Sequence record: SRR20825006_268
Reading direction: 5' to 3' (one strand)
Length of the DNA: 35,410 nt
Position numbers and translations under genes: made by a program. Positions 3,453 through 10,986 of the stretch are shown here, one piece after another. The notes under the pieces were generated by a model. That model worked only from the letters and a program-made list of their open reading frames with translations. It was not told where the DNA came from and made no database searches. Each line of letters starts with the position of its first letter. Within the stretch, counting starts at the first letter, position 1.

Positions 3453-4631
3453 TTATATCTCCAGGGCAAGCCCCAGGGTAGCGGTAAAATCGTCTTTTTC
3501 CGGAGTAATGCCGTCGCTGTCCGGTTGCGGGCTTTCAATTCGTTTCCAGGTACCCGCCAGCCTCAGGTCCAAACGGCTGGTCAGATCCACGTCCAGTGCC
3601 ATATAGAAGTCATGCTTGGCACGGCCCGCATCCTCTTCCGTCAAGGTCACCTGATAATCAATCTGGAAGTCGATATTGTCGGTAATATCCTGATCGTAAT
3701 AAGTACCCAACAGCAATGCGGGCGTAGACACGGTACGGTCTTCACCCGGCGCCACGTCCACGTACTCGGTACGCTGATAACCGGGACCGGCCGAGACCGT
3801 CCAATCCAGCTTCGATGTATCAAAAATCTGGTACCCCGCACCAAAACCTACCGTCCATTCTGCTTCACGGTTCTGGAACGGATCACGGTAATATTCCGCC
3901 TGAATCGGCCTGAAAAACCATTTATGGCTAATCCGATAATCATGACTCAAACTCGCCGTGTGGTTATTGGCCAGCTGCTCGGATTCCGATTCCGAATAGT
4001 TACCGGTATAACTCATCTTGGTATTATTTTTTACCGTGCGGCGTTTCAGTGAAACCTTGGTATTCAGGTCTTTCTGTTCCACGTTACCACTGCGGAAATT
4101 CAGGCCCACCGAAATATCCGCAGACCACAAATCAAACTCTCTGGGTGAGGCCGAGGCAATACCCACCACCTGCGGAAACTCAACCGGTTCACCCCCCACC
4201 AGCAGCTTGCCGCGCTCCGTGGTCAAACGCCCCAGGATCACTTCACCGCCATCCAGCAGCACCGACATGACGCGCCCCGTGCGGATATAGGCCACGTCTT
4301 CCCAGTCAATCGAAATCAAATCGAAATGATCACTGTCGATCTCGACCGACTCTTCATGCAAGACCTTTATGCGGCCCTTCACCCACTCGCCAGTATCCAG
4401 CTGAATCCAGTCCCATTGCTGCACATCAAAGCTGGGCGGCTGCCAGATCTGCGGCGGGGTACTGGCCGTGTCGAAGGTTTGGTCCGCCGCAAAGGCGACA
4501 GCAGGAAAGGTGCAGACAACCAAACAGGCAGCCCAGAAGGCTGCCTGTTTGGTTGTCTGGCAAGAAGCACTGTCAGACGAGAAAGGTCGGCCGGCCATTA
4601 CCGGCCAGCCATTAACAACGACTTTTTTCAT
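3453..4631 (-). CDS. DUF481 (YdiY-like) outer-membrane beta-barrel protein with N-terminal extra domain
   Basis: Signal-like h-region ending AVAFA, WIQLDTGEWVKGRI N-domain, amphipathic strands, GFGAGYQ. ATG overlaps the glutaminase stop (TGATG). Confidence 0.8.
   Translation of the reverse strand: MKKVVVNGWPVMAGRPFSSDSASCQTTKQAAFWAACLVVCTFPAVAFAADQTFDTASTPPQIWQPPSFDVQQWDWIQLDTGEWVKGRIKVLHEESVEIDSDHFDLISIDWEDVAYIRTGRVMSVLLDGGEVILGRLTTERGKLLVGGEPVEFPQVVGIASASPREFDLWSADISVGLNFRSGNVEQKDLNTKVSLKRRTVKNNTKMSYTGNYSESESEQLANNHTASLSHDYRISHKWFFRPIQAEYYRDPFQNREAEWTVGFGAGYQIFDTSKLDWTVSAGPGYQRTEYVDVAPGEDRTVSTPALLLGTYYDQDITDNIDFQIDYQVTLTEEDAGRAKHDFYMALDVDLTSRLDLRLAGTWKRIESPQPDSDGITPEKDDFTATLGLALEI
4513..4559. 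repeat. Perfect 21-bp inverted repeat with 5-nt loop inside the DUF481 5' coding region
   Basis: CAGACAACCAAACAGGCAGCC-cagaa-GGCTGCCTGTTTGGTTGTCTG. Confidence 0.95.
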
Positions 4632-5689
4632 CACTTACCATAAGGTGCGGCTTCGTACGGGTTGCCCCCCAGCGCCGCGGAGATATCGGCAATGGCTTTC
4701 TGGGCACGTACGCTGTTACCGGCCTCATCCAGCGGCGGAGAAATAGCCGCGATGCCGAACTTGCCCGGAGAAACGGCAATGATACCACCGCCCACACCGC
4801 TCTTGGCAGGCAGGCCGGTCTTGTACAACCACTTGCCCGCATCGTCATACAGCCCTGCCGTCGCCATCACCGCCAGAATTTCCGGCATGTCTTCCGGTTT
4901 AACCAAAGCCTTGCCGGTTACCGGGTTGGTCCCGGCATTGGCCAGCGTCGCCGCCATGGTGCCCAGGTCCTTGGCATTGACACCCACAGAGCATTGACGG
5001 GTATAAATGTCGGTGGCCTGCAGCGGGTCACCTTCGATATGACCATAGGCATACATCAGGTGTGCGATCGCCTGGTTGCGCTGGTTAGTCGCCGCTTCGG
5101 ACTTGTAGATATCCTCCAGCACGGTCAGTTCCCGACCCGCAAACTCGCTGTAGTAACCGAGGATCTTGTTCCAGATTTCGTTGTAGCTCTTGCCTTGCAC
5201 CATGCTGGTGGTGGTAATCGCACCGGCGTTCACCAGCGGGTTCATTTCATGGCCCTGGTTCTGCTCGATGGCATAGATGGAATTGAATACCTGGCCGGTA
5301 GCGTCTACCCCCACATTCTTGGGCAGTGCATCGATGCCTTTCTCCTCTGTCACCTTGGCCATGGTGAAGACCTTGGAGATAGACTGGATCGACACCTCGG
5401 ATTTGATATCGCCCACGCTGTAGACCTTGCCGTCCACCGTCACCAGCACAATACCAAAGATATTGGAGTCCACCTTGTCCAGCGCGGGGATGTAATTGGC
5501 GTTAGCGCCTTCCTTCAATCCCTTGTACTTGTCATAGGCTTTTTTCAACGCATCATTGATGTTTTTTTCGGTGAGCTTGCTGTCCACCGGAGACGCCGCT
5601 GGCGCCTCATTTTCTGCTGAACAGCTGGCGCTTGCGACCGCCAGCATGCCGGCAAAAAACAGGCTGAAGAACTTACGTGAATATTGCAT
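4631..5689 (-). CDS. glsA: Glutaminase A with N-terminal export signal
   Basis: ANYIPAL, catalytic SIQSISK (SxxK), NPLVNAGAI, GLPAKSGVGGG, SPPLD; N-terminus MQYSRKFFSLFFAGMLAVASASC. Confidence 0.93.
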   Translation of the reverse strand: MQYSRKFFSLFFAGMLAVASASCSAENEAPAASPVDSKLTEKNINDALKKAYDKYKGLKEGANANYIPALDKVDSNIFGIVLVTVDGKVYSVGDIKSEVSIQSISKVFTMAKVTEEKGIDALPKNVGVDATGQVFNSIYAIEQNQGHEMNPLVNAGAITTTSMVQGKSYNEIWNKILGYYSEFAGRELTVLEDIYKSEAATNQRNQAIAHLMYAYGHIEGDPLQATDIYTRQCSVGVNAKDLGTMAATLANAGTNPVTGKALVKPEDMPEILAVMATAGLYDDAGKWLYKTGLPAKSGVGGGIIAVSPGKFGIAAISPPLDEAGNSVRAQKAIADISAALGGNPYEAAPYGK

Positions 5690-5724
5690 TACTCATGCTC
5701 CCTCTGAGAGATTCCGGCTTCCAC

Positions 5725-6885
5725 TTAAAGCAGATTGCCACTGGAAAAACTGTATTTGACGCTGAACTGGACACGGCGGTCGTAGCCCTTGTCACCGTCA
5801 TTGGCGGTGCGCTTACCAAACAGGTATTCCACCCCCATCATGACCTTGTCATTAGGGGTATAGAGCAGGTTGGTTGAGGCATACTCGCCTTTCTTGAAAG
5901 CATCCGGGCCCTGGAAATCCGTGTTGTCGATTTCGGTAGAGCTATAACCAATAGCGGAACTGTAACGGTCATTCCAGGCATGTTCGTAATAGCTGATCAG
6001 GCCGGTCAGTGGCACTACCTGGTAATCCGGATCAATGGCATTGCCATCCGGTGCCATATCGACCCCACCGTCGTTCATGTAATTGGAAATACCATCACCA
6101 TGAACCACACCCAGAATCAGACGGTCTTTTTCCAGCAGGTTGATCGTGGTGGTCAAATTGACGCCCCAACCCAACTCGCTGTCGTCCGGGCTACCATCAG
6201 GACCACCGGGAGTGTCATAGCCCACCTGGCGCAGGATACCCGCTACCTGGAAGTGGCCCCAGTCGCCGACCTGGCGGAAGTGCGCGGTCAGGTCGGGGTA
6301 TTCGTTGTCGCCCGCAGTGGTATTCGGATCCAGCCCGTTATCCACCCCACTACCCGGAGTCTCAATGGCCACGGCCACGGTCTGATCGCCCTGCACCGGC
6401 GTCCAGCGAATCTGCGGATTGCGCAGGAACACCATGCCCGACGGCCCCCAGTAGTCGATCACGTTAGGGAACACATCCCCGTCCATGAACACACTATTGG
6501 TTTGCCCGGCCAAAATGGATTTCCACTCACCGTAGGCATGACGCAAACGAATCGTCGTCTGCCCCTCATCCGGGCCGACGCCGTACATATCGAATTCGAA
6601 TTTGGTGGTCAGTTCACTGTCACCAGCCATGGTGCTGGCATTCACACCCAGACGACTCTGGCGAACACTCAACTCCGCCTGACCATCACTGCCAACGGAG
6701 GACGCGTTGGTTGGGATACGGCTAGGGCGCAACGCCCCTACCCAATCCGGATTGGGCCGATCAAACGCCTGCACATAATCCACCATCCCGAAACCGTAGA
6801 CTTCGAAAGAGGAATCCGCCAAGCAAGTGAGAGGAGCAAGAAGCAGCGCAGTACCGAGGGTGCGCCTGGAAGCGAGAGTACCCAT
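5725..6885 (-). CDS. DcaP-family trimeric outer-membrane porin
   Basis: Signal peptide, VYGFG, RQSRLG, KFEFD, RLRHAY, GQTNSVFMD, terminal RVQFSVKYSF; start chosen at the ATG downstream of AGGGA. Confidence 0.85.
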   Translation of the reverse strand: MGTLASRRTLGTALLLAPLTCLADSSFEVYGFGMVDYVQAFDRPNPDWVGALRPSRIPTNASSVGSDGQAELSVRQSRLGVNASTMAGDSELTTKFEFDMYGVGPDEGQTTIRLRHAYGEWKSILAGQTNSVFMDGDVFPNVIDYWGPSGMVFLRNPQIRWTPVQGDQTVAVAIETPGSGVDNGLDPNTTAGDNEYPDLTAHFRQVGDWGHFQVAGILRQVGYDTPGGPDGSPDDSELGWGVNLTTTINLLEKDRLILGVVHGDGISNYMNDGGVDMAPDGNAIDPDYQVVPLTGLISYYEHAWNDRYSSAIGYSSTEIDNTDFQGPDAFKKGEYASTNLLYTPNDKVMMGVEYLFGKRTANDGDKGYDRRVQFSVKYSFSSGNLL

Positions 6886-7172
6886 GATCATCATCCCTGT
6901 GCATTGTTTTGTTAATCGCTGCCATTCCCGGGCAGAACTGTTGAGCACCCCGAGCTGCAACGTTAAACCTGTGATCCGCCTCCGATAGAAGCACAAATTT
7001 TACAGAGTGTCACGATAGTCCCATCCACAGCTTTTCAAAATGGTGACACGCTTTACAGAGCCTTAAAAAACACACGCGGTTGTCTATACTGGTGGTTAAG
7101 CTGAACGGCATGGCGACACGCCAATGTGACCAAGCGATAAGCCACCATTCACAACCTACGGGCAACCTCATA

Positions 7173-9625: not shown

Positions 9626-9666
9626 ATTGGCGTCCTTCCTCTTTTCACAAGGGCAACTGATCAAGG

Positions 9667-9945
9667 ATGATTACCATGAAACAGCCCACCCCGAGTGGCG
9701 GCGTGGTCCACCCACTGCCCGACGATCTTCGCCAGACTCTACTGGCGGACAGCGCCATGCTGGCGCAATGGGAAGACATCACCCCGTTGGCCCGTAACGA
9801 ATGGATTTGCTGGATAGAAGACGCTAAAAAAGCCGACACTCGACGGGGTCGCATTACCCGTGCCCAGGAAAATCTCACCGCCGGCAAACGCCGCCCCTGT
9901 TGCTGGCCGGGCTGCCCCCACCGCGAGCGCACTGGCAAGGCATGA
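9667..9945 (+). CDS. YdeI/OmpD-associated family protein
   Basis: LPDDL..L, WEDITPLARNEWICWIEDAKKADTRRGRI, C-terminal PCCWPGC; AAGGA RBS. Confidence 0.85.
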   Translation: MITMKQPTPSGGVVHPLPDDLRQTLLADSAMLAQWEDITPLARNEWICWIEDAKKADTRRGRITRAQENLTAGKRRPCCWPGCPHRERTGKA

Positions 9946-10164
9946 AAACGTCCGCCCGCGCGCCAACAACCCGGACACCTTACGGCGAGCCATCCGGATG
10001 CACGAGAACCACAAGCTGCCTGATAGTGACGGCTTACCAACATAAAGCCGCAGAGTGCGGTTTGCTTGTTTTCAACGGAAACAGCCCCGCTTACGCACCC
10101 CGCCAGCTACAATTTTCTTCTATATCAAGCACCTTGCTGTCATCCAATGGATGACAATTCTCCA

Positions 10165-10324: not shown

Positions 10325-10986
10325 ATAAAAGTATGTACCGTAAACTCGAACACAATGTGCCAGAAAAGGCGCAACACAAATATTACAATGAACATTTCGA
10401 GCGTGCTGAAATCGACCTCGCGTTCAAAAATGCGGTTCATGTTTTTCAAAATTGTATATTTGAAGACTGCTGCATAAGGGTTAATTCAAACTCATCTGCT
10501 ACGCCAAAAATACTCGGCACAAATACATTTGCAAATTGCGTAATCTGGCCGGGAAGAAAAATGTCCGTAAGCACCATAGAGGCAAACTTTGTAAGTTGTA
10601 AATTTAAAGGAACATGGTCAGGCCATATAAGAGGCAAGGTAGAAAATTGTGATTTCTCTGAAGCAAATATAGAAATGTTTACCTTCTTTGACCAGAAAGA
10701 AATAGGTAACAATATTATCTGTGGCCAAAACTTAGCCATAATTGAAAATGCTGGTGAGCACAAAGCGGCTTTAAAGTCGGCTTTGGGTGAAGAGTCAAAA
10801 ATGTGGATTCATATTCGCGCAAACACAGGGCTGTTTATTGTTAATATCAATAAGCATCAAGACAGCGAAGTATTGTTAAGGGTTTTGCCTAGTTTGCCAT
10901 TTGTTAAGGTGGCCCATAATGCCTAACAATCGCAGGTTGTCGGACTGGTTTTCCGCTGAGCTCCAAGCCAGCCGCAACTGCGGGCG
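10319..10986 (+). mobile_element. Integron gene cassette (single ORF)
   Basis: Starts at G/TTAGGC (10318-10324), the exact complement of attC R'' GCCTAAC (10921-10927); AT-rich; ATG 14 nt after the crossover; stop codon lies within R''. Confidence 0.88.
10333..10926 (+). CDS. Cassette-encoded hypothetical protein with pentapeptide-like/beta-solenoid repeats
   Basis: 197 aa, AT-rich codons; VFQNCIFEDCCI, TFANCVI, ANFVSCKFKG, VENCDFSEANI. Confidence 0.8.
   Translation: MYRKLEHNVPEKAQHKYYNEHFERAEIDLAFKNAVHVFQNCIFEDCCIRVNSNSSATPKILGTNTFANCVIWPGRKMSVSTIEANFVSCKFKGTWSGHIRGKVENCDFSEANIEMFTFFDQKEIGNNIICGQNLAIIENAGEHKAALKSALGEESKMWIHIRANTGLFIVNINKHQDSEVLLRVLPSLPFVKVAHNA

Follow-up and report, generated by a model that had tools for sequence, protein, structure and literature searches.

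The stretch of DNA analysed here, referred to below as the window, is the whole 35,410-nucleotide (nt) sequence from record SRR20825006_268, and its subject is a group of three minus-strand open reading frames (ORFs) that may together allow glutamine to be hydrolysed outside the cytoplasm. The ORFs lie head to tail and encode a DcaP-family porin, then a glutaminase A (GlsA) and then a DUF481 barrel (Table 1). Judged by the names of its homologues and of the loci recovered, the host is an Alcanivorax species, a member of a genus of oil-degrading seawater bacteria; 66% of the sampled words of the window are common to the nearest genome compared. An initial annotation of this DNA had described three co-oriented genes, the first two separated by 35 nt and the second and third joined by a TGATG overlap, each with an export signal. 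We found the genes in precisely this arrangement: the porin stop and the glsA ATG, which is directly preceded by GGGAG, are 35 nt apart, and the glsA TGA (4633–4631) shares bases with the DUF481 ATG (4631–4629). The porin gene has extra in-frame ATGs at 6891 and 6894. The flanks are functionally unrelated to the operon, with a divergent HAD hydrolase and an amidase upstream and unknown ORFs and a short-chain dehydrogenase downstream.

Table 1. Coordinates of the genes and sequence features of the porin–glsA–DUF481 locus within the window.
Feature	Position	Strand	Remarks
DcaP-family outer-membrane porin	5725–6885	−	386 aa from ATG at 6885; PF19577
Glutaminase A (GlsA)	4631–5689	−	352 aa; PF04960, NF009020
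GlsA N-terminal extension codons (putative signal peptide, lipobox Cys at 5621–5623, Ala/Pro/Ser linker)	5579–5689	−	without YbaS counterpart
DUF481 outer-membrane protein	3453–4631	−	392 aa from ATG overlapping glsA stop; PF04338
DUF481 N-terminal domain, presumably periplasmic	4100–4487	−	predicted tandem small beta-barrels of the SH3/Sm/Tudor kind
RNA hairpin 1 (GGCTGGCCG / CGGCCGGCC), just 3′ of the glsA stop	4589–4610	−	GC-rich stem
RNA hairpin 2, inside DUF481 signal-peptide codons	4519–4553	−	U-rich run after stem; stem up to 15 bp here
Upstream region of the porin gene, shared with the divergently oriented HAD-hydrolase gene	6886–7079	−	inverted repeat; blocks conserved between species

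The GlsA product matched profile positions 1–282 of 286 in PF04960 (E = 1.1e-104; 350.1 bits against a cut-off of 27) and scored 440.7 bits against the NCBIfam equivalog NF009020 ‘glutaminase A’, for which the cut-off is 395. Residues 43–345 could be aligned to residues 6–308 of Escherichia coli YbaS (PDB 1U60) over 303 residues with a constant offset of 37 (E = 1.5e-84). Since this alignment is gapless from residue 43 onwards, the first 37–42 residues of GlsA represent an extension, and the catalytic domain starts at approximately residue 38. Residues S103, K106, N154, E198, N205, Y229 and Y281 correspond to what we take to be, in YbaS numbering, its catalytic and substrate-binding positions (a Ser-x-x-Lys pair followed by Asn, Glu, Asn, Tyr and Tyr), and none of them varies when 14 homologues drawn from different families are aligned. 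We infer that GlsA is a catalytically intact and active L-glutaminase.

Bacterial glutaminase A is, according to the textbooks, a cytoplasmic enzyme. In order to call export signals we applied a rule of our own, which combines a hydrophobic window with the −3/−1 rule. By this rule, each of the three proteins of the operon starts with a basic n-region and a hydrophobic core, after which small residues mark a candidate cleavage site, as the initial annotation had suggested. The h-region of the porin is ALLLAPLTCL, with a candidate cut between CLA and DSS, and that of the DUF481 protein is AFWAACLVVC, with a candidate cut between AFA and ADQ. In GlsA, residues R5 and K6 precede the h-region LFFAGMLAVA (Kyte–Doolittle hydropathy 2.43), after which the sequence offers either a cut between ASA and SC or a lipobox, SAS-C23. 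The predicted layout is thus a signal peptide at residues 1–22, Cys23 in the lipobox-like ASASC and a linker at residues 24–37. The c-region reads VASAS-C23-SAENEAPAASPVDS, where SAENEAPAASPVDS is the Ala/Pro-rich stretch after Cys23, so that the candidate signal, the possible lipoprotein Cys and the Ala/Pro linker noted previously are all present.

These N-terminal features are not restricted to the window. A signal-peptide-like N-terminus was detected by the same rule in 101 of 104 close GlsA homologues from the fetched loci (66–99% identical). The misses are L041, L056 and L101, of which L041 has a strong hydrophobic core and fails the K/R requirement only. Homologues with a full N-terminus in the database gave a similar result (114/115), and none of five distant GlsA paralogues (34–38% identical) scored as signal-peptide-like. 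The N-termini of the homologues are unrelated in sequence and the mature domains are 70–80% identical, behaviour that is typical of signal peptides. In a quick tree, the only phylogeny of GlsA that we use, the exported clade (93 rows) occupies a long branch away from four signal-less paralogues. The initial annotation was to be abandoned if GlsA lacked a signal peptide, and the outcome was the opposite, since the extension is absent from YbaS and clade-wide by our rule.

The region around Cys23 raises the possibility of a lipid anchor. The motif S-x-S-C-[SAT]-A-[ED], which resembles the lipobox pattern of bacterial lipoproteins, occurs in 22 Alcanivoracaceae GlsA clusters with differing h-regions, and in every case 8–16 residues of variable sequence, rich in Ala, Pro, Gly and Ser, come next. 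In GlsA homologues with a plain A-x-A signal, the conserved helix begins a few residues past the cut, with no linker. The presence of a conserved Cys in an otherwise free-running region, together with the tether, argues for lipidation, and a Ser at position +2 of a lipoprotein directs it to the outer membrane. On the other hand, the ASA-SC junction is also a good signal peptidase I (SPase I) site, and GlsA may therefore be soluble in the periplasm. On balance, it seems fairly likely that the Alcanivorax enzyme is lipidated at Cys23.

The first gene of the operon encodes a protein that matched positions 91–410 of the 410-position DcaP profile PF19577 (E = 2.8e-30; 106.1 bits against a cut-off of 27), and residues 71–380 matched Acinetobacter DcaP (PDB 6EUS; E = 4.5e-21). 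The barrels are homologous and a KYSF motif lies near the C-terminus of both proteins. KYSF is the very C-terminus of 6EUS; the porin of the window continues for six further residues (...KYSFSSGNLL; 5725–5745). Outer-membrane barrels normally end on an aromatic residue, so this non-aromatic end is unusual. A further difference concerns the N-terminus, where the accessible text of PMC6679007 describes a periplasmic coiled coil in DcaP. No such coiled coil (∼60 residues) is present in the Alcanivorax porin, in which the profile match runs from position 91 at residue 51 of the protein, and only ∼25 residues separate the predicted cleavage site from the barrel. The genomic setting also differs from that of Acinetobacter DcaP, as the Alcanivorax porin gene stands beside an amidohydrolase gene rather than in a dicarboxylate catabolic locus.

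To assess how consistently these genes occur together, we searched 61 relatives of the nearest genome, with 24 genomes of the genus among the material. GlsA is present in 29 of the 61 relatives, including 21 of the 24 genus genomes. Porin orthologues of at least 80% identity were found in 14 genus genomes and abut GlsA in all 14. When the threshold was lowered to at least 60% identity among the 61 relatives, the porin again abutted GlsA in every case (15/15), including a 60% identical orthologue in G057, which belongs to another family. In G061 a 46% identical porin lies ∼5 kb from GlsA, and weaker DcaP paralogues (26–34%) are located elsewhere in the genomes of relatives. DUF481 orthologues behave in the same way, adjoining GlsA in each of the 17 genus genomes that have one. 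Within the genus, 14 genomes have the complete porin–GlsA–DUF481 arrangement, three have GlsA–DUF481 and four have GlsA alone.

We also carried out a wider scan of 80 GlsA loci, one genome per species, which overlaps the sample of relatives; at seven of the loci, one flank is shorter than 1.5 kb. In 47 of the 80, GlsA has a DcaP-like porin no more than 700 nt away, on the same strand in 46 cases, upstream in 34 and downstream in 13. DUF481 was observed in 13 of the 80 loci, in 12 of them within 700 nt of GlsA, and nine loci have both partners. The porin-linked loci span Acidobacteriota, Eisenbacteria, Myxococcota, Thermodesulfobacteriota and several gammaproteobacterial families, and their neighbours otherwise differ. 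On the quick tree of GlsA the porin label changes at least 14 times and the phyla are interleaved, which implies that the pair has been kept, lost or re-formed many times. A lack of conserved linkage had been named in advance as fatal to the proposal; for the porin, linkage extends across phyla. Conservation of the entire neighbourhood has held up in part, the association with DUF481 being far narrower in the wider scan despite its constancy in the genus. Exported GlsA keeps company with outer-membrane channels and cytoplasmic glutaminase, YbaS for one, generally with inner-membrane permeases. That the partner follows the compartment we read as evidence for substrate delivery.

As noted in the initial annotation, the operon itself contains no inner-membrane transporter. 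Candidate carriers are encoded elsewhere in the nearest genomes. G001 and G020 each have one GltS and three Amt genes; no GltS match was found in G013, and one SDF carrier and three Amt genes were identified in each of G001, G020 and G013. Carriers for both products, glutamate and ammonium, therefore exist in these genomes. In G001 (G001:C35:28101-31279) a gene for an SDF-family (GltP/DctA-like) carrier lies ∼800 nt from an Amt gene, and the same arrangement is seen in G020 and G013, which suggests that transporters for both deamidation products are paired. Searches of G001, G020 and G013 gave a single GlsA match per genome and no PF00710 type II asparaginase, and exported GlsA appears from these matches to be the sole enzyme of its kind there.

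The third product is less readily interpreted. Its match to PF04338 (E = 1.7e-38; 133.2 bits against a cut-off of 21.1) covers residues 175–390 only. An AlphaFold2 model built from 44 sequences (mean predicted local distance difference test score (pLDDT) 85.9, predicted template-modelling score 0.73) starts with a signal helix and a disordered segment, which lead into an N-domain made wholly of beta structure (residues 63–149) and then a 12-strand barrel (residues 158–379). Among solved structures, Foldseek ranked NanC (of the NanC/KdgM type; TMt 0.55, E = 3e-5) and PcoB (TMt 0.57), both 12-strand channels, highest for the barrel, with autotransporter barrels next. A VIA-wide comparison of the whole model provided no specific relative: TamA, OmpG, CdiB and NanC scored Z 12–14, and since many barrels lie at Z 10–14 the likeness is generic. 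Twelve strands are also listed for the DUF481/YdiY family, TCDB 1.B.75, in the available part of PMC4827864. Compared with DUF481/YdiY, NanC/KdgM and PcoB, the Alcanivorax protein possesses an extra N-domain of ∼120 residues.

The N-domain matched no Pfam family and no PDB entry by sequence (one hit, E = 0.58), and the ESM Atlas returned unnamed clusters only (0.81–0.85). Representative clusters that contain it number 620, and in nearly all of them it forms the N-terminal part of a protein of ∼350–430 aa. Modelled alone (pLDDT 82.2), it looks like tandem small beta-barrels. We considered a likeness to Tudor, Sm or SH3 folds as a functional lead and rejected it, as the Foldseek E-values were no better than 0.026 (tandem Tudor), the VIA Z-scores did not exceed 7.6 over ∼48 residues and the arrangement is a common one. 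The combination of N-domain and DUF481 is not tied to glutaminase, since G057 has two such paralogues, each on its own in an unrelated setting. We know of no member of this large family with an established function. Our literature search on DUF481 function yielded only one preprint, the accessible text of which reports that mutations in a Pseudoalteromonas DUF481 gene alter growth under nutrient stress and raise sensitivity to fusidic acid (10.1101/2024.12.11.627208). The DUF481 barrel is a lineage-specific accessory and would most likely serve either as a second channel for small solutes or as a partner of GlsA in the envelope.

Translation of the DUF481 protein from the overlapping ATG gives an unusually long n-region of 29 residues, and there is an alternative ATG at 4598. 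The frame is open from the stop-overlapping ATG in all 12 Alcanivorax orthologues, despite the variable length and sequence of this stretch. The DUF481 start varies between species, as seen at loci L008–L010, some of which have ATGATGAAAAAG right at hairpin 2, yielding a short classic signal peptide. The window has no ATGATGAAAAAG ATG, and its DUF481 start must be 17–28 codons upstream (4598–4631).

Folding of the RNA from the glsA stop to the DUF481 signal core (4480–4650, minus strand; 171 nt) predicted two strong hairpins with a free energy of −83.9 kcal/mol and a z-score of −8.2. Hairpin 1 recurs as a GC-rich stem at the same place in most minimum-energy folds of 17 Alcanivorax loci, with a sequence that varies by species. 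The core of hairpin 2 consists of AGGCAGCC (4546–4539), an N5 loop (4538–4534) and GGCTGCCT (4533–4526), followed by a U-rich run, and it falls within the codons for K-A-A-x-x-A-A-S/C. Of the eight stem pairs, six are the same in all 12 species compared, and two are preserved by a G-U pair in one or two of the species. Across 12 DUF481 orthologues, the third position is kept in only 26 of 382 ungapped codon columns, and 7-codon windows containing the hairpin 2 stem score 4, compared with a mean of 0.47 (sd 0.67). That the stem codons retain their third positions indicates selection on both the RNA and the protein. Perhaps the hairpin serves as an attenuator or messenger RNA stabiliser and so allows DUF481 to be made in amounts independent of the porin and GlsA, although this is a guess.

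The region upstream of the porin is kept among close species. It contains an inverted repeat with GTGTCAC/GTGACAC cores (7001–7016 and 7040–7055), a candidate operator that matches no recognised motif. Scans for sigma-70 promoters and terminators gave matches at chance level, and the AauR site TTCGG-N4-CCGAA was matched 18 times in the window (16 expected) and not at all upstream of the operon. Elsewhere in the window, the segment 10001–11000 has a G+C fraction of 0.43 compared with 0.51–0.66 in the rest, and its neighbourhood includes ORFs at 9645–10043 and 10333–10926 without a Pfam match; this segment may be foreign DNA.

Other lineages surround exported GlsA with further proteins. We clustered the three genes on each side of GlsA at 72 loci, glsA having been missed by a crude gene caller in the other eight. 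One cluster is a secreted Amidohydro_2 enzyme (17 members) and another is a signal-bearing protein of ∼500 aa with an N-terminal coiled coil (14 members), most likely another outer-membrane channel by these features. The Amidohydro_2 enzyme, with the N-terminal motif DSHFHLTNY, and the coiled-coil protein join the GlsA–porin pair at L039, L047, L056, L070, L076 and L083 as well as at L085, L096, L099, L100, L103 and L105, and together they look like a second channel-plus-hydrolase module. In Alcanivorax, relatives of the Amidohydro_2 enzyme are only 27–32% identical and are found elsewhere in the genome only; with no orthologue there, the second module is not part of the Alcanivorax operon. 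Five loci that lack DcaP (L054, L061, L075, L077 and L104) have a signal-bearing protein of 416–455 aa directly upstream of GlsA. It possesses a conserved YDYDNPDG-like motif and no Pfam match, and is possibly a different porin family in the DcaP position. Smaller clusters include GltS directly downstream of GlsA, an asparaginase and an aspartase-type lyase (two members each).

Taken together, the sequence data lead us to favour porin-fed deamidation of glutamine in the periplasm, probably by a GlsA tethered to the outer membrane, for the purpose of nitrogen scavenging. We consider this account probable. L-glutamine, or a very close amide, would cross the outer membrane via the dedicated porin and be hydrolysed by periplasmic GlsA. 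The enzyme would probably be held by a lipid on Cys23 at the periplasmic side of the outer membrane, with ∼14 residues acting as a flexible tether. The ammonium released could be taken up by Amt carriers and the glutamate by GltS or SDF carriers, all encoded outside the operon. For a nitrogen-limited hydrocarbon degrader the amide nitrogen would be the main pay-off, and the dosage of DUF481 may be set apart from that of the porin and GlsA by the conserved 5′ RNA hairpin. The entry of glutamine by the porin and its cleavage in the periplasm had already been proposed in the initial annotation; it is the reading that the signal and linkage data support best, and it is what we infer from them.

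Several observations weigh against this account. The export calls come from our own rule and not from SignalP. Characterised DcaP porins prefer di- and tricarboxylates to zwitterionic amino acids, according to the accessible part of PMC12338516, passage of these acids being known for Acinetobacter DcaP3/4. With 33 of the 80 loci lacking a DcaP-like neighbour, and with GlsA standing alone in four genus genomes, the porin must be dispensable. Related genomes are not independent samples, and hence we attach no statistic to the linkage. No nitrogen-control promoter was apparent, as the sigma-54 pattern was matched 71 times in the window (65 expected) and never upstream of the porin. Expression support is weak. 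Parts of all three genes are matched, at no less than 90% identity, by contigs from RNA libraries (four runs, three studies), and in each run a single contig spans the porin–glsA junction, yet such contigs may hold DNA and a contig that spans two genes does not amount to a single transcript. No contig of the four runs covers 4443–4569 and those of X2 and X3 end loose at 4416; transcript ends are unreadable from contigs and were not used.

Among the alternatives, the true substrate could be an amide other than free glutamine (for example D-glutamine, a gamma-glutamyl compound or an amide of acidic or dicarboxylic type) that a DcaP-type porin admits. The requirement of DcaP porins for growth on di- and tricarboxylates, given in the available text of PMC12338516, is in line with this idea, as is the frequent presence in the cassette of the secreted Amidohydro_2 hydrolase (17 members) and extra outer-membrane proteins in other lineages, and exported GlsA forms a distinct, very conserved branch. 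Such a substrate nevertheless seems doubtful to us, given that the mapped YbaS substrate and catalytic positions are all invariant in a gapless alignment, that GlsA passes the glutaminase A equivalog and that Alcanivorax has no Amidohydro_2 orthologue. It is likewise unlikely, in our estimation, that the three proteins form one outer-membrane machine. In such a machine the porin would let glutamine in and lipid-anchored GlsA would sit at its periplasmic exit, possibly held by the DUF481 N-domain with its tandem small barrels, so that the amide is split on entry in a form of vectorial capture; the DUF481 barrel would act as a second conduit or docking site and the hairpin would set the stoichiometry of DUF481.

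A role in acid or pH defence, with periplasmic ammonia buffering the envelope by analogy with YbaS–GadC, was part of the original suggestion. YbaS is the acid-resistance glutaminase and the closest relative of GlsA, and the cassette is also found in metagenome-assembled genomes of Acidobacteriota. However, Alcanivorax lives in seawater, the operon includes no GadC/GadB-type partner and YbaS acts in the cytoplasm with an antiporter, which is a different logic; moreover, YdiY, which the initial annotation had cited as acid-induced, is labelled ‘salt-induced’ in the sources we found. We therefore found no support for pH buffering, consider acid defence very unlikely and regard nitrogen scavenging as the likelier of the two functions. 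Slam proteins act on neighbouring lipoprotein substrates, and by analogy the DUF481 barrel and its N-domain might move GlsA across the outer membrane for display as a surface lipoprotein. The conserved lipobox Cys and tether would suit such a role, as would the position of DUF481, which directly follows glsA and overlaps it at the start codon in all 12 orthologues, and its architecture of a barrel plus an N-terminal soluble domain. We judge it very improbable all the same, because DUF481 also accompanies GlsA of the SPase I type (L016, L017, L039, L049, L068, L070 and L073), a surface enzyme would have no need of a substrate porin, a 12-strand barrel is small and N-domain–DUF481 paralogues stand alone in the unrelated contexts of G057. 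Least probable of all is the absence of any functional coupling, with the genes neighbours by shared ancestry in one genus and acting independently. Synteny alone could explain adjacency within the genus, in which the divergent amidase and HAD genes are conserved neighbours too and GlsA is found alone in four genomes. Yet distant phyla also have porin and GlsA side by side, in either gene order and among otherwise different neighbours, the relatives searched showed no porin or DUF481 orthologue away from GlsA, and the tight gap and the overlap of start and stop also speak for coupling.

If porin-fed periplasmic deamidation is correct, many environmental bacteria would remove the amide nitrogen of glutamine while the molecule is still outside the inner membrane. 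This would bear on the use of dissolved organic nitrogen in seawater and soil and on the nitrogen limitation of oil-degrading Alcanivorax. A DcaP-type porin would gain an amino-acid-amide substrate and DUF481 a genetic handle. Were the three proteins to form a single machine, it would represent a new kind of outer-membrane substrate-channelling complex and give DUF481 its first function. In contrast to the textbook view of the enzyme, the predicted exported clade (66–99% identical, in several phyla) is paired with dedicated outer-membrane channels; peculiar to the Alcanivorax form are the probable lipid anchor and the conserved RNA hairpin at the glsA–DUF481 junction.

Comparison with known systems helps to define what is particular to this one. 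GlsA has the fold, the family and the Ser-x-x-Lys and other mapped positions in common with YbaS (PDB 1U60). YbaS is cytoplasmic and has no signal peptide, whereas Alcanivorax GlsA carries an export/lipobox-like extension of 37–42 residues and has outer-membrane channels as partners. Coupled deamidase–transport systems were reportedly described in Helicobacter pylori by Leduc et al. in 2010. According to the available text of a citing paper (PMC3279353), these are gGT–GltS and AnsB–DcuA, in which a deamidase is exported and its acidic product is taken up by a carrier in the inner membrane; the enzymes are other ones, and no dedicated porin figures in that text. In Pseudomonas, the accessible part of PMC7962211 describes periplasmic deamidation of glutamine by AnsB (PGA), with import of the glutamate and use of the ammonia as a nitrogen source. 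The logic of deamidation followed by uptake is common to the Pseudomonas system, with AnsB and AatJQMP/GltS/GltP, and to that proposed for Alcanivorax. However, AnsB is a type II asparaginase (PF00710), unrelated to the PF04960 enzyme of Alcanivorax, and it is clustered with an ABC importer under AauR and RpoN control, whereas the Alcanivorax partners are outer-membrane proteins. The initial annotation knew of no described system with this architecture, and we found no description of exported GlsA or of a GlsA–porin cassette in the open-access literature, subscription journals being outside our scope; the underlying logic is already familiar from AnsB. What is new to the picture of periplasmic deamidation is the dedicated porin.

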